From Nitrosopumilus sp. (GTDB taxonomy: Archaea; Thermoproteota; Nitrososphaeria; Nitrososphaerales; Nitrosopumilaceae): DNA of 64,000 nt. The translations under genes and the position numbers were made by a program. A model generated the notes under the pieces. The model was not told the DNA's origin and did no database searches. It saw only the letters and a list, made by a program, of their open reading frames with translations. The DNA is taken from NCBI GenBank assembly GCA_965197525.1, contig OZ240211.1:320001-384000 (forward strand), given 5' to 3'. Numbering within the stretch: the stretch's first letter is position 1; each line of letters begins with the position of its first letter. This document shows positions 12,880-64,000 of the stretch, one piece after another.

Positions 12880-15800
12880 GTGAAAAAAAAATTGGTTAAG
12901 AATATTTTTGCTTTTTGCACAAGTGGTGGATTCAACAGTCATACTGGTTATCAAAAATTGCAGTTACATTGGCTTTTGTCCCTCTCTGTAGTACTGGTAT
13001 CTGGGATGCTTGTATTGCACCCTGGTGTGTATGATACATTTCAGATATCCGGTTGGGAGGAGAAAGGGGAGGGGAATATATTTGGTGTATTGCCCATAAA
13101 AGATAATGCGTTATCTTTAGGATCATTCCAAGATGTCATTGTATCTGCAACATCTGCAAACAAAGCAGAAGATGATATCACACTGCCTATAGATTCCGTA
13201 TTCCTTGCAGCTTGGACTGATCTGATGGATTCAGTAACGCATTCAATATTACCCATACCCGCATACGCTCAAACACCTAACTCTGATGCCTTTATAACTA
13301 CGTGGGATACTACCGGGGAAGAGGCTCACCCCACACTAGCTGTCGCTTCTGTTAAATTTCATATAGATGTTAAACCTGGCAGTCAAGTAACAGTTGATTG
13401 GGGGAACGGTCAATCAAATACGTACAATGCATCACAAGGCGTGTCTCATGATTATCAAAACAGTCAACCTGGTGTATCCAAAACCAATACTATTTCAATC
13501 ACAGGTGATTTGGAGCACTTTTATTTTTATTATGTTGAACCTTTCAAAACTCACGATTCCCCGCAGTTACTCATGTCACTAGACCAATGGGGTGATGCCA
13601 AATGGACTGATATGACCAATATGTTCAGAGGTGCTACAAACATGCAGTATAATGTAACTGATGTGCCTGATCTCTCTTCTAATCCTGATGTAAAGTACAT
13701 GTTCAGATCCGTCCATTCGTTTAACGGTGATCTGTCCAACTGGGATGTATCTAAAATGACTGATTTGGGATACATGTTCGCCGATACGCCATCTTTTAAC
13801 TCTGATATCTCAGGTTGGGATGTATCTAAGGTAACTCATATGCCTTACATGTTTCACAATTCCCCCTCCTTTAACGCAGACATCTCAGATTGGGATGTCT
13901 CATCTGTGGAATACATGTTTTACATGTTCGCCGCCGCAACCTCTTTTAACGCAGACATCTCAGATTGGGATGTCTCATCTGTGGTATTCATGTATAATAT
14001 GTTCGGTGCAGCAACCTCTTTTAACGCAGACATCTCAGGCTGGGATGTCTCATCTATGTATAGTATGGGTCTGATGTCTTCTATATTCTACGATGCATCT
14101 TCATTTGACCGTAATTTGGGACCTTGGTTTATCGTACTAGAAGATACGGTTGTAGGCCATGACAAGACAGTGGTCACCCCCATATCCTCACAGATTGAGT
14201 TTGATGCAAATACTAACAACTATGACATTACAGGCGCTGATGCCAATTATTTTACAATCACAGACGGGGGGCATCTTGTCCTCAACTCCCCATCTGACTA
14301 TAACTCTAAATCCCAATATGACATAACAATAACTGCCAACAACGCAGGTGTGGACAAACTGTATCTTGATGTGGCACCTTCCATTTCTGTTACTATTACA
14401 GTCAAACAACCCTCTGATACAGCTGTCACATCCATTGCAAGATACAACCCCTTGACACAGACTACTGATAGTAGTACACTTTCATTCAATGTACTGTTCA
14501 GTGATGATGTAACCAACGTAAACTCGGAGGACTTTGAGCTGTCTTCGAGCAGTCCTACAAATACCATGGAACATACGTACACCAGTACCCCATCACTATT
14601 CATACCATATGATACTGTCAAGACAGATACAATTACCGTATCTGACTCTGACACTGTCTCTGCAGTATCAGTTGCCGTAGACATTACCCACGCATGGATA
14701 GGCGATCTTCTAGTCGAACTCATCTCGCCTGACAATCAAGTAGTAACACTGCACAACTATGCCGGTGGCTCTACAGACGACATCGTGAAAACATACACAC
14801 TTGAATACGACGATGACGTCTCAATTAACGGTGACTGGCAGTTGCGCCTGTATGATAACTATAATGCTGATAGTGGGACCTTGAACAACTGGTCAATTGC
14901 ATTCGGTGATGACTCTGCATCCAATTCTATCACGTCAGTGACAGGTTCTGGCAGCCTGTACTATGTTACAGTCGCATCACCCCAGGCAGGTACATACAAC
15001 TTGGATATCGCAGAAGACAACGACATTGTAGACGCTTCAAATAATTCATTGTCCAGCCGTACACCCACAGGCGATGATCAGTCATACACCGTTACTACAC
15101 CAACTGATACTGCAACAGCTGATAACACACCTCCGGTACTCACACTTACAGGTTTGTCTACCGTAACTATGGGTACGGGCACCACATATACTGAGGACGG
15201 TGCCACCTGTATCGACAACAATGACGGCGATATCTCGTCCCAGATTGGCATGACAGGTTCAGTGAATACAGGAACAGCTGGAACATACGTTATAACCTAT
15301 ACATGTACAGATGCTGCCAATAATCCTGCTACACCGATAACTAGAACAGTCAGCGTTGCAGACTCGCCACCAACTGTTACATCCATCACAAGGCACAGTC
15401 CTACAGAACAAAACACGAGTAACAGCACGCTTCAGTTCAGTGTACTGTTCAGTGAGACTGTAACTGGTGTAAGTCAGGACGATTTTGAGCTGTCCTCAGA
15501 CAGTCCAACAGATGTTACCTCTCAGCCATTTACGTACTCTAGTACGCCATCCCTCTTTGTACCATATAATGTAATCAAGACAGATACAATCACCGTAACT
15601 GACTCTGGCACTGTTACATCAGTGTCAGTATCAGTGGATATCACACATACCTACATTGGCGATCTAAAGGTGGAACTCGTTGCACCTGACAATACAGTCC
15701 GTATACTTCATAATCATATCGGCGGGTCAGATGATGATATTGTCAAAACTTACACACTTGAATACGACGATGACGTCTCAATTAACGGCAACTGGCAGTT

Positions 15801-18412: not shown

Positions 18413-18463
18413 AGAATCAGATTCTGTTTAATAATGTGGATATAGCGTAAAAATTATTGGTGA

Positions 18464-19345
18464 TTATAAAGGAATTACCCCTAAAAGATAATCCACTAAT
18501 AATGAGAATTTGTCATTGTCTCTGTTGTTGTATCGCCACTCCATCTCTTTGATATACAACAGAAATTTTTCAGATCCTATGCCGTGATGTTTGGCAAGCT
18601 GTTCCTTTGCAAAGCTCCAGAATCCCTCTATGCCATTTATGTAAACTCTGCCTCTTGCAAATATCTTGCTGTGATCCACTGACATATGCTTGTACCCGTG
18701 AAACATCAACGAATCATATCCATGCCACATGTCCGTGTATACGATGCTTCCTCTCTTTACTTTCTTGATGGTTCCATGCAAAAGTGTCTTGGTCTTTACA
18801 TTCTTTACAATCTCCACATGAACCTTGCCGCCTCTCTCCAGTATTCCAAACACTATGGTCTTGTTTTTGGCACCACGCCCCCGATTTCCTTTTCTTTTAC
18901 CTCCAAAATACGCCTCATCAGCCTCAATTTCTCCTCTTACCTTCCTGTCGGATTTGGCCAGATTATACAGTATGCTGCGCCTGATGCAGTCAAATGCAAG
19001 TAATGCGGTAGGATAGCTAGTGCCGGTCTCAATTCCTGCACGTCTTGCACTTGTACCAAGCTCAAATAGTTTGATCAATGTAAGCCATTTTGTAAAATCA
19101 ATATTGATGTTGCCAAGCCACGTATTTTCAAATGGTTTGTAATCGAATCTGCAGTTCTGACACCGGAGCCTTGCTCTTGACATGACATAATATTTTTTGG
19201 AATTGCATGACGTACAGTTGATGGTATGTTTTCTTTTGAATCTGTTGCAAAGGAATTCTAATAACGACGCTTTGTCAGAAATGATTCCCGACAACTCAAT
19301 CAGACTGGTTTCCACCATGAATAATTAGAGATTATGGGTAATCTA
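18464..19345 (-). mobile_element. IS1595-family element; intact transposase 18464-19318
   Basis: N-terminal CxxC/CxxC Zn finger, HTH, EADEAYFGG, VYTD and INGIEGFWS. The ends are imperfect (ATTACCC.TAA....TAAT, about 18473 and 19343), and no clean TSD was found. Confidence 0.85.
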
Positions 19346-19448
19346 GATTATGCATAATTTATTCAAGTCTAACAACTGATTAATTTTAGTACTAGGACAA
19401 ATATTGATGATCATCTAATTCTATATCATACTAAACCAACGTTAGTGA

Positions 19449-20684
19449 ATGTCAAATCCATCTAAGATCAAGATGTTGCAAGATGCTCTTGCACAGTCCA
19501 AAAACGAAAACAAAAGACTAGAAATGGTTGTAGGGCAAAAGGACAAAGAGATAGAGCGGGTTGTAGGGCAAAAGGACAAAGAGTTGAGCTTTGAGCACAG
19601 CTTGTGGAAAACCAGACATAATACCAACATACAAGCAAGCCCGGAAAATGCCGCGCTGTTGCACAGACTTGAGACACTAGATGGCATAATAAATAACAAG
19701 AAACTGCTTCGTGGAGTAACATCGCTTAGCAAAGAAGTGTTTGAATATTTACTAGATAATTTTGAGAAGGAAATCAAAAAGTACAAAGATGCACCGTTAT
19801 TTCGTAACAACGAGTCAAGAGCAGAAGATCCCGGCAACCGTTGTAAACTCTATCCAAGACATGCACTTCTCATGTGTCTGATACGCTTCAAGGGCAATCG
19901 GACACAGGAAGACCTAGCGGCATTCTTTGGGATAGACCAGTCTAGCGTATGCGATTATCTCAAGTTCTGCAACAAGATACTTGGCATTATACTTCCAACA
20001 CCACACAAGATCTCAAAGGCGATATCAAATTGCAAGACTGCAGGTGAACTAAAAGAGTTTATTTCTGGAAATGGTGCAGGGGTGCTACTAGTCGATGGCA
20101 CTCACATACCAGTACTTCGTTCAGGTGACAAGGATAGAAGAAAAGAGACGTACTCAGGCAAGAAGAAGAGGCACACGTTAAACACCACCATAACAACTGC
20201 TACAAACAACATCATACTAGGACTAGGTAATACCGTAGTAGGCAAGACACACGACCTGACACTGCTCAAAGAGGATTCGCTTCCGTTTGGCAGATGGGCT
20301 AAAAAAATGCATGACGGGGACGCCCCCGCAAAAGAGAAATTCACAGTGTACATGGATCTAGGATATCTTGGGATACAAAATGCTATTCCCGGTGCAAACG
20401 TAATCATGCCTCACAAGAGACCACGTAAGAAAAAAGGAGAAAAGAAGAGAGGCAAGCTGACAGCTGTACAAAAAAAGCACAACAAAAAGGTCAGCAGTAT
20501 CAGGGTGACAGTAGAGAATAGTATCGGCAGGCTCAAACAGTATGCCAGGATGAGTGATCCGTATGATGGCACAGAAGATGAGCTCAACTACGAAATGAAT
20601 ATCGTTGCAGGCTTGGTAAACTTGCACCTGATGATGACACTTCGCAGAGGAAGTACCAAGATGCGCAAAAGATTCTGTGGTTAA
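19449..20684 (+). mobile_element. IS5-family ISL2-like (DDE_Tnp_4, Harbinger-related) transposase
   Basis: VDGTHIP, YSGKKKRHT, DLGYLG and HNKKVSSIRVTVENSIGRLK motifs; N-terminal coiled coil with duplicated VVGQKDKE. Element ends not resolved. Confidence 0.8.
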
Positions 20685-20794
20685 TACAAGGGCGGCAGTG
20701 ATGTCGCCATACCAATGACACAGCAATTACCGCGCACCTGACGTGCCGTATGCCTGCACAGGTTGTTTTGGTTTTTTTCGTTTCTATATCCATA

Positions 20795-22464
20795 CTATTC
20801 TGATTAAAGATCCGGACAAAATCGCTTTCACCATTGAAATCTAAATTAGATGTTCAAAAACAAGACAACCAACTAAGATATGGAAGTGTCTTGAATAATA
20901 CACGCAGTGCTAGAAGAGATCCGGATGTACATAGCCGTCACACGGTAATAATAACACAGAATGATCTGTTCAGTGTGCAGATATTTTGTGTATGCTGATC
21001 ACTGTTGTATGATTGTAGGGCCTACAGGTATGATCCGCGGAGGGTGCCACGGCCCGTTTTGATTTTTGAGGGCCTCCTGCATATATCTGAACAGTTTGAC
21101 TATGGCCACTTCTCTGCTGTGCAACAGCTGCCTGATCCTCTTTTGCAGCTCGTCTAGCCCTCCAAAAAACATGTCTGCAACTGCACGCCTTATCTCGCGC
21201 CACTGTATCTCGATTGGATTGTGCTGCGGGGTACGGGGAGGTAGAAACCACAAGATGACATCGCCCTTGGTGCTTTTAATATAGTTGCCCATCTGTCTGC
21301 CGGTGTGGGCTGCCGCGTTGTCAAGTATTACAAACACCTTGCCGTACCTGTATCTGAGATACTCCAAAAGTGCAATCGTACTATTGGCATCCGTCTTTTG
21401 ATGGAACTGTATGTCAAGCGTGCCCAGTCCCAGTGCCCCTATGATCTTTATGCTCTTTTTTGAAAAATTAATCTGGACCGTGTCCTTTCCGCCTTTTGCC
21501 CGTATGCCCCGCGTCGATGAGGGCGCATCTACAAAGGCTGCGGCGTCCACACATACTGCTTTGTAATGCTTGTTGTCATATTTTTTGAGCATCTTTATGG
21601 TTTCGCAGATGTATTCATCCTGCTTTTCAGGCGTGGCACAGTTGTACGGCACGGGTCTTGCATATCTGACAGAGAAACCAATCTTTTTTGTCAGCTGTAA
21701 CGCGCCGCTTGCACCGTACGCCACTTTGAACCTGTTTTTGATATGACAGGCGACAATCTTTGCGGTCCACGAACCACGCAGAAAACCGCATTCTGCAGGA
21801 CTTTTGCCAAGATCCATTCTCAGTCTGTTTTTTTGCTTGACAGAGAGGCGACACGGCCTTCCCGGACTCTTCCTGTCGTGTATGCGTTTGATTCCTCCGA
21901 CGGCCAGACGCAGCAGCCACCCATAGACGGTACTTTTTGCAACTCCAAGAGCTTGGGATATCTGCCTGAATGAACTGCATTGCTTTCTGAGTCTGACTGC
22001 CTGTAGCACGCACTTGACCTTGTAATCCGTGCTGCCTGCGTGCAGTGATTCAATGTCTGCCATATCGACATCTGGAAGAAACGATTTCCCTCGTTCCACT
22101 ATACATGCAGCAGGGACATCCGTACTATGCAAGATATTTCTGCGTCTCATACCGGTCCGACCCTTCTGCCATACCGCGCGTAGTTAGTTGGGATTAACTT
22201 GCAGTGAAGAAAAAATTTACATACGTTCTTAAGCGTTGTTCCTGTGAGTGTTTGTTGTGTGCGTCCCTTCATTTGTGGATATCTGAAGGGATTTCACACT
22301 GTATGTTATTAAGAGACGGTATCAATTACGTTTGAATTACAGCTAAACTGATTTAAAACGTAAGGCACGCACATGCAGGATTGATCAGATCGTGTTGATT
22401 ACCCATTCACGCATCTGTTGTAGGAACTTTTTCTAGAAAGTGTCCGGATCTTTAATCAGAATAG
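20795..22464 (-). mobile_element. IS630-family insertion sequence; apparently intact transposase 20999-22150
   Basis: Perfect 24-bp TIR CTATTCTGATTAAAGATCCGGACA (20795-20818 / 22441-22464) flanked by TA on both sides. HTH, KSPGRP, CVDAA, ILDNAAAH and LPPRTPQHNPIEIQW. Confidence 0.92.
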
Positions 22465-22577
22465 TATCCATATATGTGGACTTTTTATCACAAATTGTTT
22501 TATTGTTTACACATATGTTACTAAAAAATGTAATACACATATATTATAATCGATTACCCATAATCTCTAATGATGAA

Positions 22578-25493: not shown

Positions 25494-25502
25494 TCAAAAT
25501 TG

Positions 25503-32557: not shown

Positions 32558-40369
<7,812 letters not shown>

Positions 40370-43300: not shown

Positions 43301-46300
43301 ACGGTTGAGGTGACGGCAGCATAGGTGGTGCTGCCTGACTCAAAGGTGGCGATGCTGCGTGGATCACTAAGCAGATTGGTGGTGGTGTCGCTTCGGATTC
43401 CTACACTAGACGGGGCTGCCGGGTCTGACAAATCGATTATATTGACGTTGCTGTCACCTGTCGCGGTGGCTGCAACATAGGTCGTTCCGCCTGACTCAAA
43501 GGTGGCTACGTCCCAGACAAAGGAAAGGTCAGTGCTGCTGCTGCCTGCAGCTTCCGGGTTTTCCGGATCTGACAGATCGATTATCTGGACGCCTCCGTCA
43601 GCGGATGATGCAACAGCTGCATAGGTGGTACCACCTGACTCAAAGGTGGCTATGCCGCGGGCGCCATGAAGGAAAATCTCACCAGAGCCTTCGGTGTCCA
43701 CGATGCTGCCTACGGCTTCCGGGTTTTCCGGGCTTGCAGAGTAGATTGGCAGATCCGAGTCGTGCGTCCAGCTGTAGGTCAGCTGTGTGCTGTCAGGGTC
43801 AGAGGCAGTACCGGACAGGGTGACTGTGTCGCCTGCGTCGACTGTATAGGAGGGGCCGGCCTCTGCAGTAGGCGGCTTGTTCACGTGGGTTATGATAACA
43901 GTGATGTCGTCAGAGGCTGACTCGGTGCCATCAGAGGCCTCAAGGGTAAAGGTAACGGTGGTATCAAAGGCAACTTCGGGGGCGGTAAACGTGGTCGTGG
44001 GGATCCTAGAGTCGGCAAGGCCGATTGGCAGGTCCGAGTCGTGCGTCCACCTGTAAACAAGGGTGTTTCCCTCGGGGTCAGAGGCAGTACCGGACAGGGT
44101 GACTGTGTCCCCCTCGTCGACTGTCTGGTCGGGGCCGGCCTCTACTGTCGGCGTGTTGTTGGGAGGGGAGATGGTGTCGCGTATACGGACAGCAACAGAT
44201 TCAGAAGTGGAATCGGCATCAGAGACGGTGAGGGTGAAAGTGATGGTGCGGTCACCGGGAACCTGGGGGGCAGTAAAGGTGGTGGAGAGTGCACTGTTGT
44301 CGGCAATGCTGACTTGCGGACCCGAGTTGCGCTGCCACGCGTAGGTCAGCGTGTGGCCATCAGGGTCAAAGGCACCCCCCGAGAGTATCACCGTGTCGCC
44401 CTCATGGAATGGCGACGGGTGAGGGACGAGTATCTGGACGCCATGCTCGTTGTTCGAGGTTACTGCGACATGGATGGTACCTCCACGCTCGAATGTGGCG
44501 ATCCCCGTGGCACTTTGAAGCAGAGTGGAGTCGTCATCGGTGATTTGGCCCACGGCTTTAGGGCTTGCCGGGTTTGACAAATCAATTATCTGGACGCCTT
44601 TGTCAACGTCTGATGCGACTGCAGCATAGGTGCGGCCGCCTGAGACGAAGATGGTAATGCCGGTAGCACCTTCAAGTTCTTCATAGTCTGTGAGGTTTGT
44701 GTCGGTGCTGTCAGTCACGCTGGCAACAGCAACAGGGCTGGCAGGGTTTGCCAGGCTGATTATCTGGACGCCGTCCTCGACAGATGATGTAACGGCAGCA
44801 TAAGTCGTTCCGCCTGACTCGAAGATGGCGATGTGTTGCGGGACAGTAAGCACACGGGAGTCGTTGTCGGTGATCTTGCCTATGGATGACGGGTTGGCCT
44901 GGATCATGCCGTTTGAGTCTGTTAGTCGGAGCATCTGGATGCCGTTTTCAATTTGCGAGGCTACTGCAGCATAGGTGGTGCCACCCGACTCGAAGGTGGC
45001 GATGGCACTGGGGCCACTAAGTGCACGGTTGCCGGCATCGGCGATCTTGCCTGCAGGTGTGGGGTTTGACGGGTTTGATAAATTAATTATTTGGACGCCT
45101 GCGTCATCGTACGCTGCCACTGCGGCATAGGCGGTGGTGGTATTGCCACTAGTCGCCTCGAAGATGGCGATGTCGTGGGCGCCGTTAAGCTCAAGGGAAC
45201 CGGTATTGGCTAGTTTGCCTGCCGGTATGGGGTTTGCAGGGTCTGCAAGGCTGATTATCTGGACGCCGTCGTTCCCGTATGATGCAACAGCTGCATAGGT
45301 GGTGGTGGTGGTGGTGGTGGTGGTGGTGCCACTAGTTGACTCGAAGGTGGCGATGCCGCGGGCGTCGTCAAGCAGGAGCTCGTCGTCGTCGTTGATCTTG
45401 CCTGCGGCATACGGGCCTGCCAGGTCTGCAAAGCTGACTATCTGGATGCCGTTGTCTCTGTCTGCGGCAACAGCTGCATAGTTGACGCCGTCTGACTTGA
45501 AGGTGGCGATGCCGCTGGCGCCTTTAAGCACGCGGGAGCCGTTGTCGGCTATGCTGCCTGCGGTCTCTATTGTGCCCAGTGCGGCGGCATTGACAGACGG
45601 TGGGGTATTCAGACGGAGTATCTGGACGCCGTTGTCATTGTCTGAGGCGACGGCAGCATATGCAAAGGTGTTGCCACCGCTGGTTGCCTCGAAGATGGCG
45701 ATGCCACGGGCACCGTGAAGCTCACGGGAGCCGTTGTTGGAGATCTTGCCTGCGGGTGCGGGGTTGTCTAGGATCATGCCGTTTGAGCCTGTGAGTTGGA
45801 GTAGCTGGACACCGTTGTCATCACGTGAGGCGACGGCAGCATATGTTGTTCCGCCGGCCTCGAAGATGGCGATGGATTGTGCGCCGTTAAGCTCGCGGTT
45901 GCCGCCGTCAGTGATCTTGCCTGCGGGTGCTGGGTTTGCCAGGATCATGCCGTTTGAGCCTGTGAGTTGGAGTATCTGGACACCGTTGTCATTGTGTGAG
46001 GCGACGGCAGCATATGTTAGGGTATTGACACCGCTGGTTGCCTCGAAGATGGCGATATCCCAGGCGCCGTGAAGCTCAAGGGAACCTGTGTTGGTGATCC
46101 TGCCCGCATCTGACGGGCTTGTCGGGTCTGACAAATCGAGTATCTGGACGCCGGAGAGGGAGGAAGATCTGGATGATGTGACGGCGGCATATGTTATTCC
46201 GCCGGCCTCGAAGGTGTCGATGCCGCGGGGGTTTCGGATCAGGGCATCGTATCTGCCGATCCCGCCTACGTTTTGCAGACTTGACAAGTCTGAGAAGTCG

Positions 46301-47184
46301 ATTATCTGGACGTTATTGCTTCCTTTTCCTGTGAGGGCCGCGTATGTGTTGGCCGTCCCGAAGACGGCAACGTCCCAGGCTTCGTTAAAACTTTGTCCGC
46401 CGGGATCTCTGAGGTGGCCTGCGGCATTCGGGTTTTCCGGGTCTGAGAGGTCGATTATCTGGAGGCCGTCGTCTCTGTACGAGGCGACTGCAGCATAGGT
46501 GGTGCCGCCGGACTCGAATGTGATGATTCCGGTGGCGCCGTTAAGATCACGTCCATCGGCATCGCGTATCTGGCTTACAGCTTGCGGGTTGTTCCGGATC
46601 ACGCCGTTTGAGTCTGTGAGTTTGAGTATCTGGACACCGCCGCCTATGCGGCTATTGTCTCCGAAGTAATCCGTATTGGGGCGGGCTCCGGCCTTGTATG
46701 ATGTGACGGCAGCATAGGTGGTGCCGCCTGACTCAAAGATGGCTACGTCACGGGCCTCCTCAAGACTGACTCCGCCCCTATCACCGATTCTGCCTGCCTC
46801 AAACGGGCTCATGACGCCGGTCACCTGTGCCCATGCATATTCAAGAAAATCAGGAGGGAACACTGCTGTCCAGGCATGGTCTTCTAAAGAGATGGAGCCC
46901 CAGATTCCCCCCAGGAGTATGATTCCAGCAATCAGGAGTATGAGCCTGTTCCCAGAACCCATCCTACGGCCAAGAGTTATTACGGAGCCACCCCCCCCCC
47001 AGTTTATTGATGAATGCTGTGATAATATTGGCAGAGCAGGCGGCATCATTCTGACCTGCTGTTTTTTACTCTCTACAATAGATGGAATTGTACTTTTTTT
47101 GTACGTGTTCACGTCGTACGTAGAAAAATAATTAATGTTCTCAGGATATGTCAAACTTGTGCCTAAATCAGATGATTTTCTCAA
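40375..47184 (-). CDS. Giant surface protein: 28 LVIVD-like blades (4 x 7), 3 PKD/REJ-like domains and a Cys-containing C-terminal region
   Basis: Repeats I..FESGGTTYAAV....GVQI(I/L).L and AGPDQTV..GDTVTLSG. The real start is probably ATG 47049/47046 or 46962. Stops 5 bp before the GTG of the next giant gene. Confidence 0.85.
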   Translation of the reverse strand: MRKSSDLGTSLTYPENINYFSTYDVNTYKKSTIPSIVESKKQQVRMMPPALPILSQHSSINWGGGGSVITLGRRMGSGNRLILLIAGIILLGGIWGSISLEDHAWTAVFPPDFLEYAWAQVTGVMSPFEAGRIGDRGGVSLEEARDVAIFESGGTTYAAVTSYKAGARPNTDYFGDNSRIGGGVQILKLTDSNGVIRNNPQAVSQIRDADGRDLNGATGIITFESGGTTYAAVASYRDDGLQIIDLSDPENPNAAGHLRDPGGQSFNEAWDVAVFGTANTYAALTGKGSNNVQIIDFSDLSSLQNVGGIGRYDALIRNPRGIDTFEAGGITYAAVTSSRSSSLSGVQILDLSDPTSPSDAGRITNTGSLELHGAWDIAIFEATSGVNTLTYAAVASHNDNGVQILQLTGSNGMILANPAPAGKITDGGNRELNGAQSIAIFEAGGTTYAAVASRDDNGVQLLQLTGSNGMILDNPAPAGKISNNGSRELHGARGIAIFEATSGGNTFAYAAVASDNDNGVQILRLNTPPSVNAAALGTIETAGSIADNGSRVLKGASGIATFKSDGVNYAAVAADRDNGIQIVSFADLAGPYAAGKINDDDELLLDDARGIATFESTSGTTTTTTTTTTYAAVASYGNDGVQIISLADPANPIPAGKLANTGSLELNGAHDIAIFEATSGNTTTAYAAVAAYDDAGVQIINLSNPSNPTPAGKIADAGNRALSGPSAIATFESGGTTYAAVASQIENGIQMLRLTDSNGMIQANPSSIGKITDNDSRVLTVPQHIAIFESGGTTYAAVTSSVEDGVQIISLANPASPVAVASVTDSTDTNLTDYEELEGATGITIFVSGGRTYAAVASDVDKGVQIIDLSNPASPKAVGQITDDDSTLLQSATGIATFERGGTIHVAVTSNNEHGVQILVPHPSPFHEGDTVILSGGAFDPDGHTLTYAWQRNSGPQVSIADNSALSTTFTAPQVPGDRTITFTLTVSDADSTSESVAVRIRDTISPPNNTPTVEAGPDQTVDEGDTVTLSGTASDPEGNTLVYRWTHDSDLPIGLADSRIPTTTFTAPEVAFDTTVTFTLEASDGTESASDDITVIITHVNKPPTAEAGPSYTVDAGDTVTLSGTASDPDSTQLTYSWTHDSDLPIYSASPENPEAVGSIVDTEGSGEIFLHGARGIATFESGGTTYAAVASSADGGVQIIDLSDPENPEAAGSSSTDLSFVWDVATFESGGTTYVAATATGDSNVNIIDLSDPAAPSSVGIRSDTTTNLLSDPRSIATFESGSTTYAAVTSTVEDGVQIIDLSDPAAPSDAGKLADTTGTNGLLLDGAWDIATFVSNHATYAAVTSSVDAGVQIIDLSDPAAPSDAGKLVNTNQLLLNASSYITTFVSNHITYAAVTSNGVQILQLTDPDGAILANPAPAGQIADGGSLLLGGAGDITVFFSNHTAYAAVASFNDDGVQIIDLSDPTDPQAVANATDSTVSNPTDYDRLNGAHGITTFESGGTTYAAVTGNLDNGVQIIRLAESDALSTTFTAPEVVSHTSVTFTLTVSDGTDSVSDDTVVTIYSTVSLASPEPEGQIANDDDVLLDGPWDVATFELTDGTTTNTYAAVTSTNNHGVQILRLTDTDGAILAIPSAVGSIADDTDRVLHAPRNIATFESTSGGIATTYAAVVSAGEHGVQIIDLSDPTDPQAVASVTESTTSNPTDYDTLNGAQAITIFESGGTTYAAVTSSRGIQIINLSDPTMPSAAGSLRASNNVILSDVQGIVTFESTSGGITTLYAAATSLTGHGVQIIDLSDPTDPQAVANAIDSTVSNPTDYSELEGARGIATFISDGTTYAAVAAFDDDGIQIIDLSDPTDPQATGILENTSNLELDGAWNIATFESAGTAYAAVTGFWDDGVQILRLSDPENPEFLGKIENSDSLLLQGVIGIDIFELGDTTYAAVVSHLGHGVQIISLGQAIPKAEVQGKVSRTGSAYNGECGVTVIGADLSAEWAARITMTDSEGATILDGSGTLQAGSATEQITLTDGVLMISGLESDDSVTAHLSATNIDRTKSHTCDISLISAIIFSFTSHVPAITYDVSYASPTFETIAGDTGISYGISSFKETTVGLPPIVTGDTGISYEISCLARVDGIGPSAARAEGITPPVAWFMDIILTDGDEQTVQILSGVGSPAPLSFDKWHSRNVDGEGDILAGRNSIYHGSAGSPQGQEHGEFLVAQMIRYDADPDEQYACSYDMSVDNKHRAPDNSVILDSMVRASGGVPDTS

Positions 47185-47985: not shown

Positions 47986-47988
47986 ACT

Positions 47989-49289
47989 TCATTTTTTTGC
48001 GAGTTTTCTTCCATCCTTTACACTTTTCCCATCCTTTACATTCTTCAAGTGCTTTGCCTCTGCATTTCTACGTGATTCTGTGCGTTGTCTTTGACATTCT
48101 GCAAAGGTAATTCGTTTTTTTAACATCCAAAATATAATACGCAACATCTTGGCAGCCGTTGCAACTATGGTCTTGGATGTTCCTCGCTTTCTTGCAACAC
48201 GTTTGTAAAACTCTGTCAGGACAGTTGTCTCTTTTGCATGTATCCCATGTGTAAGTGCGGCTTCTGGGAGAACCCATCGCACCGTCTTGTTGCCTGCATT
48301 GGTTATCTTTCCAAGGTGTATTATTCCTGCAGAGTTTCTCACTGACGGGGCCAGTCCGATGTATGCAACTAGTTTGTCAGGGTTTGAGAATCTGCTTATG
48401 TCATCTATCTCTGATGCGATGGCAAGTGCTGTAAACTTTCCTACTCCAGATATTGACATGAGAATTTGTGCATATTCGCTGTCTTTGACCATGTCGTTTA
48501 TCTTGAGATTGGCCATGCTTATGCGCTCATCAAGGGAGTCTATGCATTTCAAATACTCCTCTATCTTCCAATTCTTCAGTCTGCAACTCCCTGTTAAATG
48601 CAGGTGTAAACGTGGTTCCCGGAATCTTGATTGACTCTTGGAGCAGTATGCCATGATCATGTTCTTTATCTGGGTTCTGTTCTCACCATTCTTGTACGAA
48701 AGTGTATGGACCGTTTTTCCTCGACGGTTTTTGGTGGCGAGACATATGATGCATGGATGTAATCTCCCCTGAGCAGGTCTGCCAGTGCATGCGCATCAAA
48801 CCGTTCTGTCTTCTTTTTGGATTTTGCTATGAGGCGTGTAAGATAGGGGTTTGACATGACCACGTCAAGATCCAGGCCCCTCACGAGTTTTTGGTATACG
48901 CCATACCACACGGATGACGATTCCAACACATATTTGGCATTTTTGAGAAACACTGAAAATTCGTGTTCAATTATCCCAAAGTCGTTTTCAACTCTCTTGT
49001 TCATCAAAAGATTTCCTTCTTGATCTACTGCCGCAGCCTGAAGGAATTTTTTGTGCAGATCCAACCCAAAGAACACTTTTTGTTCTTCCTTGGTTTTTTT
49101 GATCCTTGCAGTGGAGGATTTTGTTGTAGCCATCACCTGCACACCAGATCTCTGTTTCACAACGGTACTCTTTTTGACGGTAATCTGTTTCTTTGCTTTT
49201 CCCGCCTTTTTTACCTTCTTTGCACGAGGTATCTTGGAATCTGCGGGTTTATGCTTTGTACCATCTAAATTACTTTGTCTGCTTTGCAC
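47989..49289 (-). mobile_element. IS110-family recombinase (DEDD) gene, frameshifted
   Basis: FGLDLHK, LESS, KKTERFDAHALA, SISGVGKFTA, YIGLAP and ATAAKMLRIIFWMLK. Frameshift near 48685, with a further compensated pair near 48650 and 48590. Confidence 0.9.
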
Positions 49290-50012: not shown

Positions 50013-50064
50013 AAAAATATGACTTTATGATGATTTTTGCTTTTGAATCTTAGTATTATAGAAG

Positions 50065-50148
50065 CGCAAAGAATGGGATTTGAACCCACGTGACGGTGAA
50101 ATCAATTGATCTTAAGGCAATCGCCATACCAGACTAGGCGACCTTTGC
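50065..50148 (-). tRNA. tRNA-Leu (UAA), class II with atypical features
   Basis: Acceptor GCAAAGG/TCTTTGC, D arm GCC-TAGTCTGGTAT-GGC, anticodon loop CTTAAGA, long variable arm and T arm GTGGG-TTCAAAT-CCCAT. Confidence 0.88.
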
Positions 50149-54043: not shown

Positions 54044-57000
54044 TTATGGCGTAGTGGCAGTAACAGTATAGGATTGATCATCTCCTGTAGTAGAAACAAG
54101 GCCAGATAGCGGGTTGGAGGCAGAGTCCACAATGTTGTTGTCTGAGGAGACATCCAAGTTGTATGTGCCCGCATCTGGTGCTGAAACGGTAACTAGGTAT
54201 TGGCTGCCAGACCCGGTTACTGATGTGATGGGGCCAGAGCTAGCACCGTCACCGAGTGTAAGAGTCCAAGAGTTGAGGACTCCAGAGTCCAGATAATAGT
54301 TGTCATTCATGCGCAACTGCCAGTCGCCGTTAATTGAGACGTCATCACCGTATTCAAGCGTGTATGTTTCTGTGATGTCGTCTGCAGAGCCACCGACACG
54401 GTTGTGCAGTGTTACTATCTGGTTGTCAGGCGAGACGAGTTGTACCAAGAGATCGCCCCTCCATGTATGGGTGATGTCTACTACAACTGATACATCAGAG
54501 ACAGTGCCTGATGCAGAGACTGTGATGGTGTCTGTCTTGTCTGTGTCGTGGGGTACGATATCAAGGGATGGCGTACTGGTATACGTAAATGGCTGAGTGG
54601 CATTATACGCAGGACTGTCAGGGGATAACTCAAAGTCATCGGTGCTGACGCCTGTTACTGCCTCACTGAATAGTACTGCAAATTCAAGTGTGTGGTCGTT
54701 AGTAGAGGCGTCTGCTGGGTTGGATCTAGTAATAGAGGTAACAGTTGGTGGTATATCTATGACGTTGACTGTTCTAGTTACCGGTACGGCGGGGTTTCCG
54801 GCACTGTCGTCACATGTAAAGGTTATAGTATATGTTCCAGCTATGTCGGTGTTGACAGGATTATCAACTTGAATGTGAGATTGAGAGATATCGCCATCGG
54901 TGTTATCGATACATGTTGCGCCTGCATCAACGTATGGAGTGCCAAGAGTCGTATCCACAGTAGAATCTGTTAATGTGATTACTGGTTTAACATTATCAAC
55001 TGTGATGGTGACATTATAGGAATGATCCTGATTAGCAGGAACAAGACTAGTCAAAGGAATGTTTGCAGAATTGACAATGTCGGTATCTTGTGCTATGTCC
55101 AAATTGTATACTCCCGATGTAATTGCCATGATTGTTACATAGTATTGGCTGCCAGACCCAGTTACAGATGAAATGGGATTGATGGTAGTAGTGCCGTCAC
55201 CAAGTGTAAGAGTCCAAGAGTTGAGGATGCCAGAGTCCAGATAATAGTTGTCATTCATGCGCAATTGCCAGTCGCCGTTAATTGAGATGTCATCGTCGTA
55301 TTCAAGTGTGTATGTTTCTGTGATGTCGTCTACAGAGCCACCGACACGGTTGTGCAGTGTTACTATCTGGTTGTCAGGCGAGACGAGTTGTACCAAGAGA
55401 TCGCCCCGCCATGTATGGGTGATGTCTACTACAACTGATACATCAGAGACAGTGCCTGATGCAGAGACTGTAATGGTGTCTGTCTTGTCTGTGTCATGGG
55501 GTACGATATCAAGGGATGGCGTACTGGTATACATAAATGTCTGTGAATAACCATCAGTTGGACTATCCGAAGACATGGCAAAGTCAGTCGTGTCCACTCC
55601 GGTGACGTCCTCGCTAAAGGTCACCTTGTAGGTCAGCGTCTGGCTGTCGGTGTTTTCTGTAGCTGGATTGTACCGCTCAATTGATGATAGTGTTGGTGCA
55701 GTGGTGTCATCAGGTACGGTATTGACGGTATACGTCTCGTCAGTACCTGTAGTTGGAGTCACGTCTGTTAGTGGATTGTTTGATTCGTCTTCGATGCCGT
55801 GTCCTGACGATATCAGATCAAGGTTGTATGTGCCGTCCTGTGTGGCCAAAACCGTCACTTGGTACGTGTCGCCAGAACCTGAGATCGATGTTACAGGGGT
55901 TGATGTATCACTGCTGCTGCTACCAGGATTGATCGTAAGCGTCCAGCTGTTCAGGGTACCGTCGTCTGCGGTGGCATAGTTGTCGTTTATCTGTAGCGTC
56001 CAGGTGCCTGCAATGGAGACGCCTGCAAAGTCTGGTGTGTATGTCTGGTCTATGTCATCGGCGCTGCCTCCAGAGCGGTTGTGGAGGATCTTGGTTGTAC
56101 CATCAGGTGCAATAAGATCTATCTTGAGGTCGCCTATGTACGTGTGAGATACATCTATTGCGACAGAGACTGACGTAACAGTACCAGAGCCGGTAACTGT
56201 AATGGTATCTGTTATGGTGTTGGCTGCAGTTATGGCAATGGCAGGAGAACGTGTCTGTGTGAACTGGGCAGAGCTTGATCCGCCCGTGCTATCAGAAGAC
56301 AGGGTAAAGTCAGTCGTGTCCACTCCGGTTACATCCTCGCTGAATGTCACCTCGTAGATTAACGTCTGGCTGTTGGTGTTTTCTGTAACGGGACTGAACC
56401 ACTCAATTGATGATAGTGTTGGCGCAGTGGTGTCAGCAGGTACGGTATTGACGGTATACGTCTCGTCAGTACCTGTAGTTGGAGTCACGTCTGTTAGTGG
56501 ATTGTTTGATTCGTCTTCGATGCCGTGTCCTGACGATATCAGATCAAGGTTGTATGTGCCGTCCTGTGTGGCCAAAACCGTCACTTGGTACGTGTCGCCA
56601 GAACCTGAGATCGATGTTACAGGGGTTGATGTATCACTACTGCTGCTACCAGGATTGATCGTAAGCGTCCAGCTGTTCAGGGTACCGTCGTCTGCGGTGG
56701 CATAGTTGTCGTTTATCTGTAGCGTCCAGGTGCCTGCAATGGAGACGCCTGCAAAGTCTGGTGTGTATGTCTGGTCTATGTCATCGGCGCTGCCTCCAGA
56801 GCGGTTGTGGAGGATCTTGGTTGTACCATCAGGTGCAATAAGATCTATCTTGAGGTCGCCTATGTACGTGTGAGATACATCTATTGCGACAGAGACTGAC
56901 GTAACAGTACCAGAGCCGGTAACTGTAATGGTATCTGTTATGGTGTTGGCTGCAGTTATGGCAATGGCAGGAGAACGTGTCTGTGTGAACTGGGCAGAGC

Positions 57001-60000
57001 TTGATCCGCCCGTGCTATCAGAAGACAGGGTAAAGTCAGTCGTGTCCACTCCGGTTACATCCTCGCTGAATGTCACCTCGTAGATTAACGTCTGGCTGTC
57101 GGTGTTTTCTGTAGCTGGATTGTACCGCTCAATTGATGATAGTGTTGGTGCAGTGGTGTCAGCAGGTACAGTATTGACGGTATACGTCTCGTCAGTACCT
57201 GTAGTTGGAGTCACGTCTGTTAGTGGATTGTTTGATTCGTCTTCGATGTCGTGTCCTGACGATATCAGATCAAGGTTGTATGTGCCGTCCTGTGTGGCCG
57301 AAACCGTTACTTGGTACGTGTCGCCAGAACCTGAGATCGATGTTACAGGGTTTGATGTACCACTACTACTACTACTGCTACTATCAGGATTGATCGTAAG
57401 CGTCCAGCTGTTCAGGGTACCGTCGTCTGCGGTGGCATAGTTGTCGTTTATCTGTAGCGTCCAGGTGCCTGCAATGGAGACGCCTGCAAAGTCTGGTGTG
57501 TATGTCTGGTCTATGTCATCGGCGCTGCCTCCAGAGCGGTTGTGGAGGATCTTGGTTGTACCATCAGGTGCAATAAGATCTATCTTGAGGTCGCCTATGT
57601 ACGTGTGAGATACATCTATTGCGACAGAGACTGACGTAACAGTACCAGAGCCGGTAACTGTAATGGTATCTGTTATGGTGTTGGCTGCAGTTATGGCAAT
57701 GGCAGGAGAACGTGTCTGTGTGAACTGGGCAGAGCTTGATCCGCCCGTGCTATCAGAAGACAGGGTAAAGTCAGTCGTGTCCACTCCGGTTACATCCTCG
57801 CTGAATGTCACCTCGTAGATTAACGTCTGGCTGTCGGTGTTTTCTGTAGCTGGATTGTACCGCTCAATTGATGATAGTGTTGGTGCAGTGGTGTCAGCAG
57901 GTACGGTATTGACGGTATACTGTGATGGTACGTCTCGTCAGTACCTGTAGTTGGAGTCACGTCTGTTAGTGGATTGTTTGATTCGTCTTCGATGTCGTGC
58001 CCTGACGATATCAGATCAAGGTTGTATGTGCCGTCCTGTGTGGCCAAAACCGTCACTTGGTACGTGTCGCCAGAACCTGAGATCGATGTTACAGGGGTTG
58101 ATGTACCACTACTACTACTACTGCTACTATCAGGATTGATCGTAAGCGTCCAGCTGTTCAGGGTACCGTCGTCTGCGGTGGCATAGTTGTCGTTTATCTG
58201 TAGCGTCCAGGTGCCTGCAATGGAGACGCCTGCAAAGTCTGGTGTGTATGTCTGGTCTATGTCATCGGCGCTGCCTCCAGAGCGGTTGTGGACGGTCTTG
58301 ATTGTTCCATCAGGTGCAATAAGATCTATCTTGAGGTCGCCTTTGTATGTGTGGGAGACGTCCACGGCGACAGAGACTGACGTAACAGTACCAGAGCCGG
58401 TAACTGTGATGGTATCTGTTATGGTGTTAGCTGCAGTTATGGCAATGGCAGGAGAACGTGTCTGTGTGAACTGGGCAGAGCTTGATCCGCCCGTGCTATC
58501 AGAAGACAGGGTAAAGTCAGTCGTGTCCACTCCGGTTACATCCTCGCTGAATGTCACCTCGTAGATTAACGTCTGGCTGTTGGTGTTTTCTGTAACGGGA
58601 CTGAACCACTCAATTGATGATAGTGTTGGCGCAGTGGTGTCAGCAGGTACGGTATTGACGGTATACGTCTCGTCAGTACCTGTAGTTGGAGTCACGTCTG
58701 TTAGTGGATTGTTTGATTCGTCTTCGATGTCGTGTCCTGACGATATCAGATCAAGGTTGTATGTGCCGTCCTGTGTGGCCAAAACCGTCACTTGGTACGT
58801 ATCGCCAGAACCTGAGATCGATGTTACAGGGGTTGATGTACCACTACTACTACTACTGCTACTATCAGGATTGATCGTAAGCGTCCAGCTGTTCAGGGTA
58901 CCGTCGTCTGCGGTGGCATAGTTGTCGTTTATCTGTAGCGTCCAGGTGCCTGCAATGGAGACGCCTGCAAAGTCTGGTGTGTATGTCTGGTCTATGTCAT
59001 CGGCGCTGCCTCCAGAGCGGTTGTGGACGGTCTTGATTGTTCCATCAGGTGCAATAAGATCTATCTTGAGGTCGCCTTTGTATGTGTGGGAGACGTCCAC
59101 GGCGACAGAGACTGACGTAACAGTACCAGAGCCGGTAACTGTAATGGTATCTGTTATGGTGTTGGCTGCAGTTATGGCAATGGCAGGAGAACGTGTCTGT
59201 GTGAACTGGGCAGAGCTTGATCCGCCCGTGCTATCAGAAGACAGGGTAAAGTCAGTCGTGTCCACTCCGGTGACGTCCTCGCTAAAGGTCACCTTGTAGG
59301 TCAGCGTCTGGCTGTCGGTGTTTTCTGTAGCTGGATTGTACCGCTCAATTGATGATAGTGTTGGTGCAGTGGTGTCAGCAGGTACAGTATTGACGGTATA
59401 CGTCTCGTCAGTACCTGTAGTTGGAGTCACGTCTGTTAGTGGATTGTTTGATTCGTCTTCGATGTCATGCCCTGACGATATCAGATCAAGGTTGTATGTG
59501 CCGTCCTGTACAGCAGAGACTGTCACGTAATACGTGTCGCCAGAACCTGAGATCGATGTTACAGGGTTTGATGTACCACTACTACTACTACTGCTACTAT
59601 CAGGATTGATCGTAAGCGTCCAGCTGTTCAGGGTACCGTCGTCTGCGGTGGCATAGTTGTCGTTTATCTGTAGCGTCCAGATACCTGCAATTGGAACGCC
59701 TGCAAAGTCTGGTGTGTATGTCTGGTCTATGTCATCGGCGCTGCCTCCAGAGCGGTTGTGGACGGTCTTGATTGTTCCATCAGGTGCAATAAGATCTATC
59801 TTGAGGTCGCCTATGTACGTGTGGGAGACGTCGACTGCAAGCGAGACTGACGTAACAGTACCAGAGTCTGGGACTGTAATGGTATCTGTTATGGTGTTAG
59901 CTGCAGTTATGGCAATGGCAGGAGAACGTGTCTGTGTGAACTGGGCAGAGCTTGATCCGCCCGTGCTATCAGAAGACAGGGTAAAGTCAGTCGTGTCCAC

Positions 60001-63000
60001 TCCGGTGACGTCCTCGCTAAAGGTCACCTTGTAGGTCAGCGTCTGGCTGTCGGTGTTTTCTGTAACGGGACTGGACCGCTCAATTGATGATAGTGTTGGT
60101 GCAGTGGTGTCATCAGGTACGAGGTTGACCGTAGACGGTGTAACTGTAATTGTAACAGTGTCAGTGGCAGTTTGTGATGCTGCATCAGTTACAGTAAGTG
60201 TAAACTTGAGAGTAGTTGCACTGCTAGGGGCAGTAAATGTAGGCGAGTCGGTGTTATCACCAGTAATTGTTACTGTGGGGCTTCCTGCCGTCTGTGTCCA
60301 CGAGTACTCGATATCCGTACCAGTCGAGCCAGAACCATCAAGGGTCACAGAGGCACCAAGGGCTACTGTCTGATCAGGGCCTGCGTTGGCTGAGGGTGTC
60401 GCTGGAATTGTAATTGTAACAGTGTCAGTGGCAGTTTGTGATGCTGCATCAGTTACAGTAAGTGTAAACTTGAGAGTAGCTGCACTGCTAGGGGCAGTAA
60501 ATGTAGGCGAGTCGGTGTTATCACCAGTAAGTGTCACTGTGGGGTCTCCTGCCGTCTGTGTCCACGAGTACTCGATATCCGTACCAGTCGAGCCAGAACC
60601 ATCAAGGGTCACAGAGGCACCAAGGGCTACTGTCTGATCAGGGCCTGCGTTGGCTGAGGGTGTCGCTGGAATTGTAATTGTAACAGTGTCAGTGGCAGTT
60701 TGTGATGCTGCATCAGTTACAGTAAGTGTAAACTTGAGAGTAGCTGCACTGCTAGGGGCAGTAAATGTAGGCGAGTCGGTGTTATCACCAGTAATTGTTA
60801 CTGTGGGGCTTCCTGCCGTCTGTGTCCACGAGTACTCGATATCCGTACCAGTCGAGCCAGAACCATCAAGGGTCACAGAGGCACCAAGGGCTACTGTCTG
60901 AGGGCCTGCGTTCAGGCCTGCGTTGTCGCTGGAATTGTAATTGTAACAGTGTCAGTGGCAGTTTGTGATGCTGCATCAGTTACAGTAAGTGTAAACTTGA
61001 GAGTAGTTGCACTGCTAGGGGCAGTAAATGTAGGCGAGTCGGTGTTATCACCAGTAATTGTTACTGTGGGGCTTCCTGCCGTCTGTGTCCACGAGTACTC
61101 GATATCCGTACCAGTCGAGCCAGAACCATCAAGGGTCACAGAGGCACCAAGGGCTACTGTCTGATCAGGGCCTGCGTTGGCTGAGGGTGTCGCTGGAATT
61201 GTAATTGTAACAGTGTCAGTGGCAGTTTGTGATGCTGCATCAGTTACAGTAAGTGTAAACTTGAGAGTAGTTGCACTGCTAGGGGCAGTAAATGTAGGCG
61301 AGTCGGTGTTATCACCACCACTGTGGGGCTTCCTGCCGTCTGTGTCCACGAGTACTCGTCCGTACTGTGGTCACAGAGGCACCAAGGGCTACTGTCTGAT
61401 CAGGGCCTGCGTTGGCTGAGGGTTCGCTGGAATTGTAATTGTAACAGTGTCAGTGGCAGTTTGTGATGCTGCATCAGTTACAGTAAGTGTAAACTTGAGA
61501 GTAGTTGCACTGCTAGGGGCAGTAAATGTAGGCGAGTCGGTGTTATCACCAGTAAGTGTCACTGTGGGGCTTCCTGCCGTCTGTGTCCACGAGTACTCGA
61601 TATCCGTACCAGTCGAGCCAGAACCATCAAGGGTCACAGAGGCACCAAGGGCTACTGTCTGATCAGGGCCTGCGTTGGCTGAGGGTGTCAGATTGTCAAC
61701 ATTGTTTACAGTGATGATTACAGTATCAGATGCCTTATCACCGTCATCGTCAGTTACAGTGAGGGTAAACGTCACTTGGGTATCAGCAGTCACTTGTAAT
61801 GCAGTGTACTGCAATGTTGTCGTGTTACCAGATGTAATAGTAACAACAGAAGTATTGTTAACTGTCCATTGATATGACGCTATACTGCCGTCAGTATCAC
61901 TAGCCACTCCAGTGAATGTACCTGACTGCCCTTCGTTTATCGTTGTATCACCAGTTATAGAGTCAATTGTAGGTGGGACGGAGTTGTTCCTTGTAAGCTG
62001 GTGTGTACTTGCAAGCACATACGGCACTGTATTACTACTACTCAAATCGGTTCCGTGTACAAGAACATTGCACAGTCCTGCATGTAATGGCTCAAACACG
62101 GCAAACTCGCTGGGCTGGATCGCCGAGCTGGCGTTGAGCGTCTCTTGGCCGGTGCAACGCACCTCCAAGTCAAGATTGTGGTAAAACAGAGAGGTGCTAG
62201 TGATGTGTGTAGTGTTTCTAATTTGATAGATAAGAGGGTAAGAGTCGACGTTCCATGTCAGAATAGCCTTTGCGATCTCTTCTGTGCCGTCTATACTGAA
62301 TGTGTACCAGTGGGACTCGTTTTCTGTCATATTACCGCTGATGATGTGATCTCCTCCACGGGTATATTCCAGAGATTTACCCACATCAAGTATACCAAAG
62401 CCCACGTTGTTAAGTATGTCAAGGGAGGTATTGGCCTCTGTCGCGTTGTTTGGCTGCCTTGCGTATGAACATCCGTCCGAGGTGTTATTCTGTTCGTATT
62501 GGAAGGACGTGCAAGGGACAGGACCGGTCCAATTGGCTCCGAGCAGTAGACCTGCCTTTACCATGACAGGTGTCGCAGAGGGATCCTCGCCTATCAGTAT
62601 AGCAGCCGCACCTGAGACAATCGGCGTCGACAAGCTCGTACCACTAACCGTAAGGTTCAGTAGTGGTGGGAGGGCGATATTGACTGCAGGCGCCACGATC
62701 TCTGGCTTTAACACTGGTCCCCTATCATATGCTTGGTACGGACCCTTGCCAGAGTGAGGAAGCATGCTAACTACCGCCTGTCGGTCGTTTATTCCCCCTA
62801 CGGATACAACGTTAGTCGCGCATGAAGGAGCTCTTATGCTCTGATACCTCTTTGTATCCATATTCCCGTCGTTTCCCACCGAAGATGACACGAAAAGTCC
62901 GCGGGTAACTACATCGTTCATGATCAGGTTGTACGTATTAACGTGGTCAGTGCAGTATAATTCAAAAATGATGCTCAAATTGGCCACCCGGGCTCCCTCT

Positions 63001-63806: not shown

Positions 63807-63965
63807 TCTGGCACTATATCCTCCTCAATGTATTTGCTTGACGAATGTGGTGCGCGGTGTTTTTCGTAATTCGATCATCCTCGTAAGTAGCGCAGACATC
63901 ATTCAAGTCAAGTTTTAGGTGCTGCTGGTGCGTGTTTGTTGTGCTTGCAGGATCAGTCAAATCCA

Positions 63966-64000
63966 TCATGATGCAGTGGTGTCAACAGGTACAGTACTGA
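63966..64000 (-). CDS. 3' end of another gene ending in the stalk linker (partial)
   Basis: Reads STVPVDTTAS-stop; the DNA matches linker GCAGTGGTGTCAGCAGGTACAGTATTGA with 2 mismatches. Confidence 0.4.
   Translation of the reverse strand, partial: STVPVDTTAS

Follow-up and report, generated by a model that had tools for sequence, protein, structure and literature searches.

The giant secreted proteins encoded between positions 12880 and 64000 of a stretch of Nitrosopumilus sp. DNA (bases 320001-384000 of the genome; this whole stretch of 64,000 nucleotides is hereafter called the window) belong to a genome-wide adhesin-like family in which various N-terminal heads precede tandem copies of one module. 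As we read it, this family evolves in concert by general recombination, was probably acquired horizontally and is now partly decaying, an interpretation to which, as a whole, we assign a probability of roughly 70%. The genome is closed, 2.21 Mb in size, 99% complete and of 39.6% guanine-plus-cytosine (GC) content, and its host is taken to be an ammonia-oxidising archaeon because an archaeal AmoA is encoded in it. The long reading frames of the window are a BspA-type gene, a propeller gene, a gene for an LVIVD+PKD protein of 2269 amino acids (aa), an S8 subtilase gene and the 3' tip of the next family member (coordinates in Table 1). In all, five members of the family, one of them truncated by the window edge, and one LVIVD relative without a stalk are counted in the window.

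A tblastn search of the genome recovered at least 102 full modules, distributed over 19 genes with a combined length of 178 kb, so that a single family of giant secreted proteins takes 8.1% of the genome DNA. The first-pass annotation of the window, which had regarded these genes as a local system, has to be corrected in this respect, as the family spans the whole genome. Typing with Pfam, which covered all window genes and 12 other heads, showed that the heads are mostly DUF285, the others being S8+DUF285+PKD, DUF285+LVIVD, FG-GAP, Big_12 and one without a Pfam match; the modules fall into subtypes A (propeller and protease type), B (BspA-gene type, with PF16403 spacers) and C, plus more distant ones. 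The clearest case in the genome of the same stalk with a different head is a pair of frameshifted megagenes (genome 482851-498053 and 2017920-2034767), which have about 7 kb of collinear stalk in common at 95.5-98.4% identity, behind an S8+DUF285+PKD head in one and a DUF285(x14)+LVIVD+PKD head in the other. For the window itself, one and the same stalk had been proposed for the BspA-like, propeller and protease heads. Indeed, all three precede modules of about 245 aa, but the stalk of the BspA-type gene is another subtype, alike in architecture, yet with only about 50% aa and about 77-80% nucleotide (nt) identity to the other window stalks.

Each module appears to be a bacterial immunoglobulin (Ig)-like beta-sandwich of the Big_5/Big_12 type, one loop of which houses a P-domain, and a Ser-rich linker comes after it. 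The proprotein-convertase P-domain (PF01483) scored above the Pfam gathering threshold in 3-5 stretches per open reading frame (ORF), with E values of 1e-66 to 1e-108. An AlphaFold model of the module, built on 21 natural copies, is all-beta with a mean predicted local distance difference test (pLDDT) score of 79, and its core has the P-domain jelly-roll fold, aligning with the corresponding domains of Kex2, furin and Aeromonas ASP over 130-165 columns (root-mean-square deviation 1.9-4 Å, Foldseek probability 1.0, E ~2e-6). Furthermore, natural module units lacking residues ~55-173 occur elsewhere in the genome. Such a P-less unit of 115 aa covers positions 1-100 of the 105 of Big_5 (PF13205; E 2e-4, 22.4 bits, below the cut-off of 23.6) and positions 1-96 of the 102 of Big_12 (PF19078; just under the cut-off), and because it spans the whole of both domains, the P-domain is best understood as an insertion in an Ig-like domain. 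A feature search of the ESM Atlas with the module gave no usable match, and the matches of a fold search were confined to its P-domain part.

The P-domain fold recurs in secreted peptidases that carry such a domain at their C-terminus, among them the kexin/furin-type subtilases (PDB 1OT5, 1P8J, 3HJR), and one head in the window is S8. Here, however, P-domains are repeated 4-13 times, mostly in proteins without a protease, and are nested in Ig domains; even in the S8 gene, they do not directly follow the protease domain, as PKD repeats intervene. At least 405 proteins of public assemblies, hundreds of them metagenomic, combine the module with heads of the same kinds, and those with any name are called 'subtilisin-like proprotein convertase family protein'. 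Such genes are easily mis-assembled and mis-annotated ('proprotein convertase'), and a domain map should help their annotation. In the literature on ammonia-oxidising archaea, we found general mentions of adhesion proteins and of DUF285 and LVIVD domains, but not the module itself.

Exchange between genes is most directly visible in the propeller and protease stalks, about which near base-identity of 35704-36290 and 57205-57800 had been noted. This observation holds: over about 700 aligned bases, one 3-nt indel of a Ser codon and 2 substitutions lie inside the stretch and 2 differences at the aligned edge. The tract is longer than originally noted, and along its full length of about 980 bp it contains 6 substitutions and indels of 3, 11 and 12 nt, with dense divergence on both sides. 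Module m3 of the propeller gene is 99.2% identical to protease m4 and at most 93% to its own neighbouring modules; likewise, the module tree, in which grouping is not strictly by gene, nests it inside the group of protease m4-m6. The tract is thus a non-reciprocal patch of protease-array type in the propeller gene, attributable to gene conversion. Since the propeller copy lacks the 11-nt lesion of its protease counterpart, the lesion is younger than the transfer.

Across the family, identity between neighbouring modules of one array usually reaches 97-100%, and exact duplicates of some two-module units occur, a pattern characteristic of tandem duplication and unequal crossover. For most modules, the closest match is a neighbour within the same array. 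Comparisons between genes give lower identities, of about 86-97%, apart from certain exceptions and mosaic modules. Three modules are chimeric and all switch where the conserved TFSE.VTGV stretch ends, being 100% identical to one type and, from about column 120-150, 97-100% identical to another; in protease m7, for instance, the first ~120 nt are 100% identical to A-type modules and the remainder 97-100% to the B-type m8. In a Sawyer-type test, 295 of 741 module pairs had an identical run longer than in any of 300 column permutations. In addition, a pairwise homoplasy index (PHI)-type statistic of 0.379 compares with 0.440 +/- 0.008 (p <= 0.0005), 44% of the informative site pairs failed the four-gamete test, and synonymous divergence varies eight-fold along the module, from 0.05 to 0.42. 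In the module tree, all A-type modules, drawn from 8 genes whose heads are unrelated, fall into a single clade that excludes the modules of two other species, and terminal modules resemble one another across genes according to their position. The suggested recombination or gene conversion between genes is hence borne out by the patch, the chimeric modules, the Sawyer-type and PHI-type tests and the occurrence of one stalk behind different heads. The stalk is nonetheless under purifying selection, as between genes the proportions of synonymous (pS) and non-synonymous (pN) differences are 0.25 and 0.07, giving a pN/pS of 0.28 that ranges from 0.17 to 0.46 over every 20-codon window.

As for the origin of the family, two relatives have an uninterrupted purF-purL-purQ cluster, whereas here a 20.5-kb insertion (window 30053-50564) divides it. 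This insertion carries the two LVIVD genes, a split IS110 element, a tRNA-Leu(TAA) (50064-50148) and small unknown ORFs; the protease gene comes after purQ, and the BspA-type gene has transposase genes on its flanks. No flanking direct repeat was found at the ends of this insertion, and an ARAGORN scan of the loci on the purF side in the two relatives, with the purF-purL gap at the edges of these loci, detected no tRNA-Leu. GC content at third codon positions is 0.48-0.68 in most family genes, compared with a genome median of 0.35. GC-biased gene conversion was rejected as the main cause of the high GC, as the non-repeated heads are GC-richer than the stalks. The module was present in 12 of 150 other genomes of the taxonomic family searched, and the two with close copies have about 56% GC. 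Their modules are 76-81% identical to those studied here, although PurL is only 66-68% identical, and closer relatives (PurL 72-73% identical) lack the module. The simplest reading would be horizontal acquisition from a GC-rich lineage, and the locus shows apparent horizontal spread across lineages of very different GC. As an observation in its own right, the relatives G110 and G006 (loci L021-L027) represent a same-genus genome of about 56% GC in all sampled loci against 39.6% here, an unusually wide GC span within one genus.

Our model would then be as follows. Each protein carries an N-terminal signal, a variable head (DUF285/PARCEL solenoid, LVIVD propeller, S8, FG-GAP or PKD) and the tandem modules, and would display binding heads on a fibre of Ig/P-domain units. 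The family would have been gained from GC-rich relatives and inserted into a conserved backbone, here the pur operon. General homologous recombination would make its arrays evolve in concert: tandem duplication and unequal crossover would hold neighbours at 97-100% identity, and occasional gene-conversion patches and larger exchanges would carry stalk segments between genes, creating chimeric modules and different heads on near-identical stalks. Meanwhile, part of the family is probably turning into pseudogenes.

Lesions, all different and consisting of non-homopolymer indels, affect 10-11 of the 19 family genes; among 62 ordinary genes compared with relatives, 60 have their full length, and no split alignment was seen for the remaining two. 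One could argue that errors of assembly or polishing, such as collapse, chimeric joins or mis-polishing, produced the shared tract as well as the chimeric modules and the frameshifts, because only the repeat-rich genes are disrupted, because the 11-nt insertion sits at a module boundary within the shared tract, and because short-read contigs of the probable source sample contain an extra G, missing from the assembly, after 61423. We consider this very unlikely. The reads were checked through Logan short-read contigs in which repeats are collapsed, leaving 60246-61247 without cover and giving a depth of about 5x single-copy over the PKD unit; the contig with the extra G is such a collapsed PKD repeat and is therefore uninformative for the protease copy. 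The two copies of the tract differ from each other, as do their flanks, so they were not collapsed, and five family genes, which encode 3461-3971 aa in ~10-12 kb each, keep an uninterrupted frame across their near-identical internal repeats. Moreover, lesions of 7, 8, 11 and 19 nt are untypical of consensus errors, and the independently assembled relative G110 has broken copies as well, so that we hold the lesions to be real at odds of about three to one. According to a different explanation, there is no ongoing exchange, and one recent duplication burst, or several transfers of ready-made genes, was followed by independent divergence. Whole-gene paralogues do exist, as in the BspA-type pair, the family is a compositionally foreign insertion, and most modules group by gene. 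However, a 980-bp patch with native sequence on both flanks needs more than duplication, and the chimeric modules, the four-gamete failures, the differences clustered beyond permutation expectation and the near-identical stalks of unrelated heads all speak for exchange, which makes such a burst quite unlikely.

The remaining question is whether variation is programmed, as it had been proposed that a maintained cassette library produces a diversifying arsenal. In Neisseria pilE/pilS, Borrelia vlsE and Anaplasma msp2, antigenic variation arises by gene conversion between paralogous surface-protein sequences, and the present family is like them in that segments are transferred non-reciprocally between surface paralogues, some of which are untranslated. 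If its broken or untranslated arrays were silent cassettes copied into expressed genes, as in pilE/pilS or vlsE, the arrays that remain open (749 codons after the propeller TGA and two protease-gene frames of more than 1000 codons) could still be donors; the protease-type patch does lie in the translated part of the propeller gene, free of the donor array's 11-nt lesion, and mosaicism is pervasive. Unlike in those systems, however, there is no single expression site with promoterless donors, no hypervariable exposed segment and no sign of diversifying selection, the transferred tracts being stalk with the low pN/pS given above. Arrays all lie in full headed genes or in recently broken ones, with only short isolated fragments elsewhere, so that no headless cassette archive exists besides the broken genes, and similarity is mostly within arrays. 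In the genome, closed and 99% complete, no reverse transcriptase (PF00078) was found, though control genomes gave matches; beside the genes, only insertion sequence (IS) transposases and no dedicated recombinase were seen. The indels are heterogeneous, as is typical of decay. We thus regard programmed variation as highly improbable, and neither the maintained library nor the diversifying arsenal is supported by these findings. It also seems unlikely to us that the untranslated arrays serve as a reservoir for repair or re-tooling by gene conversion, in a population with many head-stalk-tail combinations. If true, this would represent an archaeal repertoire of recombination-based surface variation on an undescribed fibre unit, an Ig domain with a nested P-domain, exchanged horizontally among ammonia oxidisers. 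Two further candidates were discarded during this work. Slipped-strand phase variation at the (AGT)n Ser tracts does not apply, as the lesions there are irregular changes of 1-3 nt and not changes in repeat number, and an apparent contig joint from 63847 to 57881 ('goes back 5967') arose where the reference ends at 63900 and the terminal module of the next gene aligns to a similar module end.

Several points weigh against the preferred interpretation of a concertedly evolving, horizontally acquired and partly decaying adhesin-like family. The high GC could have causes other than transfer, and the clustering of A-type modules by genome could partly reflect lineage-specific expansion instead of homogenisation. 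No C-terminal transmembrane segment, sorting signal or anchor is recognisable in any window gene, and the orientation implied by 'head' and 'stalk', which are names of convenience, is therefore an assumption. Finally, the frameshifts sit in repeats, which are prone to assembly and polishing errors, and pseudogenisation is not proven.

In bacteria, both the homogenisation of repeat stalks and the exchange of sequence between paralogous surface genes are familiar phenomena. Adhesins such as Bap/Aap/SasG, alpha-C/Rib and the RTX adhesins SiiE, LapA and MpIBP are composed of a signal, a ligand-binding region and near-identical Ig-like repeats, which unequal crossover keeps alike at the DNA level and whose number varies. 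In contrast, the repeat found here is an Ig domain with an inserted P-domain, common to genes with unrelated heads, and the window genes carry no known anchor or type-1 secretion signal. The family therefore extends a known kind of system to archaea with an unusual nested repeat unit and is no new kind of system, but the locus is a clean archaeal case of concerted evolution and inter-gene conversion in surface proteins.

Ammonia-oxidising archaea are among Earth's most abundant microbes, and how they attach to particles, hosts and each other is poorly known. Their large adhesion proteins have 1000-3000 aa, are predicted at the surface, induced in biofilms and patchy among genomes, and were proposed to sit in the surface layer (S-layer) (PMC12448741). 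The proteins described here are comparable to them (Nmar_0455-0459 and NVIE_000940-001020 regions; PMC12448741) in size, predicted surface site and patchiness, a likeness at the level of description, whereas that study describes no P-domain-in-Ig modules, 19-gene family, inter-gene exchange or pseudogenisation. Given the signal peptides, the domain types and that biofilm report, the family members are probably secreted, S-layer-associated adhesins or exo-enzymes, with adhesion, by analogy, as the best-supported role. DUF285 leucine-rich repeat (LRR) and LVIVD domains were reported in sponge-associated Thaumarchaeota (PMC7848895), which have these head domains, many transposases and a liv-type transporter in common with the present genome, although the study lists domains and not gene architecture or recombination. 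The adhesin-like families of Methanobrevibacter smithii and Methanosphaera stadtmanae (PMC11532034) are, judging from the accessible part of that source, likewise large, modular archaeal surface families with shuffled architectures, but they belong to another phylum and have other domains, and the same part reports no nested P-domain stalk.

With regard to the single genes, the BspA-type gene is the intact one, and its head is of the DUF285 kind (PF03382, E 8e-53; TIGR02167, 63.6 bits against a cut-off of 30), the true BspA-type LRR_5 model being absent from the Pfam matches listed for it. The gene (window 12835-17946) has a whole-gene paralogue at genome 201033-206117, 92.3% identical over 5.4 kb. 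About 1.5 kb adjoining one of these copies recurs inverted (90-91%) on the opposite side of the second copy and is probably a mobile element.

The propeller gene had been credited with a double-propeller head. This is compatible with its 14 repeats of about 52 aa, which could plausibly form two 7-bladed propellers; the repeats follow a GVQILD/YAAVA pattern, PF08309 is not among the matches listed for this head, and a match to TIGR04312 stayed below the cut-off. The neighbouring 2269-aa protein does match PF08309 (70 bits, cut-off 20.2), and the stop of its gene lies 5 nt upstream of the propeller gene start. PKD-like domains shared by this protein and the protease had been pointed out, which is correct at the level of the Pfam family, but the domains are only 38-41% identical in aa and have no detectable nucleotide similarity.

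The S8 subtilase gene, which runs from 63806 down to 54044 on the minus strand, was originally taken as one gene frame, but at least three indel lesions split it into three long frames plus a short one. Its S8 head (PF00082, E 2e-22, 80 bits, cut-off 21.8) keeps the catalytic His and Ser and the oxyanion Asn, but has a Glu and one extra residue at the position of the catalytic Asp (VAVLELGG versus IIDTG; residues ~185-195, window 63200-63290), so the canonical Asp-His-Ser triad is incomplete. As Glu occupies this position also in 4 of 17 aligned S8 homologues, the variant may be functional, which suggests a conserved Glu-His-Ser subclade rather than decay; the head is a putative protease whose activity is uncertain given Glu for Asp. 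Pattern scans of genome and metagenome contigs for an orthologue of this head gave no close relative, and its best database relative is 54% identical. Another sample from the study that provided the probable source sample contains a strain whose S8 head carries several single-nucleotide polymorphisms and which has lost 3 nt at 62659. The protease tail had been described as switching to modules of the BspA gene plus a DUF5011-like domain. The switch from A- to B-type and the PF16403 domain are both present, but the tail modules are closer to those of two genes 0.4 and 1.7 Mb away (93-98% nt identity), and m7 is only about 77-85% identical to the BspA-type gene of the window.

Table 1. Features of the window (positions are those of the window)
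Feature	Position	Strand	Remarks
BspA-type gene, intact, 1688 aa	12880..17946	+	N-terminal hydrophobic signal or anchor, DUF285/PARCEL head, 4 B-type modules
DUF285/PARCEL ('BspA-like') repeat head	12880-14406	+	PF03382, TIGR02167
Four B-type Ig+P-domain modules	14407-15108, 15358-16065, 16300-17004, 17239-17946	+	PF16403 Ig-like domains between them
Three transposase genes beside BspA-type gene	18464..22150		IS1595-like, IS5/DDE_Tnp_4-like, IS630/DDE_3-like
A-type modules m5-m7, 3' of TGA	32558..34807	-	include position-specific terminal module ending ...DADHTYTVSTTN
In-frame TGA inside TTEPSD linker repeat	34808-34810	-	same frame open for 749 further codons
Propeller gene, translated part, 1853 aa	34808-40369 (frame on to 32558)	-	signal peptide, LVIVD head, four modules, TGA
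Translated propeller stalk, A-type modules m1-m4	34811..37918	-	joined by TTEPSD-repeat linkers
Gene-conversion patch in propeller gene	35650..36626	-	~99.4% identical to 57151-58129, ~980 bp
Propeller m3, foreign protease-type module	35660-36391	-	closer to protease modules than to neighbours
Propeller head	37919..40369	-	signal peptide + 14 LVIVD-type repeats of ~52 aa (156-nt period)
2269-aa secreted protein	40375..47184	-	~26 LVIVD repeats, K319L-like PKD domains, no P-domain stalk
IS110-family transposase, two ORFs	47989..49289	-	within purF-purL insertion
Protease ORF 3	54044..57937	-	A-type m4-m6, chimeric m7, PF16403, B-type m8
B-type module m8	54047-54760	-	subtype
PF16403 (former DUF5011) domain in protease tail	54761-54967	-	Pfam
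A/B chimeric module m7	54995-55708	-	A-type start, B-type remainder
Patch counterpart in protease gene, probable donor type	57151..58129	-	carries 11-nt insertion 57918-57928
Protease ORF 2	57820..60951	-	three PKD units + A-type m1-m3
11-nt frameshifting insertion in protease gene	57918-57928	-	no counterpart in propeller copy
Decayed, rearranged PKD units	60915..61430	-	1-, 19-, 3- and 7-nt deletions (near 61300-61430), scrambled linker/unit near 60930; frame broken
Protease ORF 1, 805 aa	61389..63806	-	signal peptide, S8 domain, two PKD domains, premature stop
Next family gene, 3' end in window	63966..64000 (full span genome 383966-389931)	-	DUF285 head, A-type modules, one frameshift; cut by window edge

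Further genes of the window lie outside the family. Five transposase genes occur within 41 kb (8513-9493, 18464-22150 and 47989-49289), namely DDE_Tnp_1, IS1595, DDE_Tnp_4, IS630/DDE_3 and IS110. The segment directly upstream of the BspA-type gene (10030-12194) encodes, on the other strand, a PAS-domain histidine kinase of 499 aa, whose gene overlaps by 4 nt with an ORF of 222 aa for which Pfam gave no match. At 3-4710, the window encodes a complete liv-type branched-chain amino-acid ATP-binding cassette (ABC) transporter with two ATPases, two BPD_transp_2 permeases and an ANF_receptor/Peripla_BP_6 binding protein, a type of transporter that is reported to characterise sponge-associated Thaumarchaeota and to be lacking in the free-living members analysed (PMC7848895).

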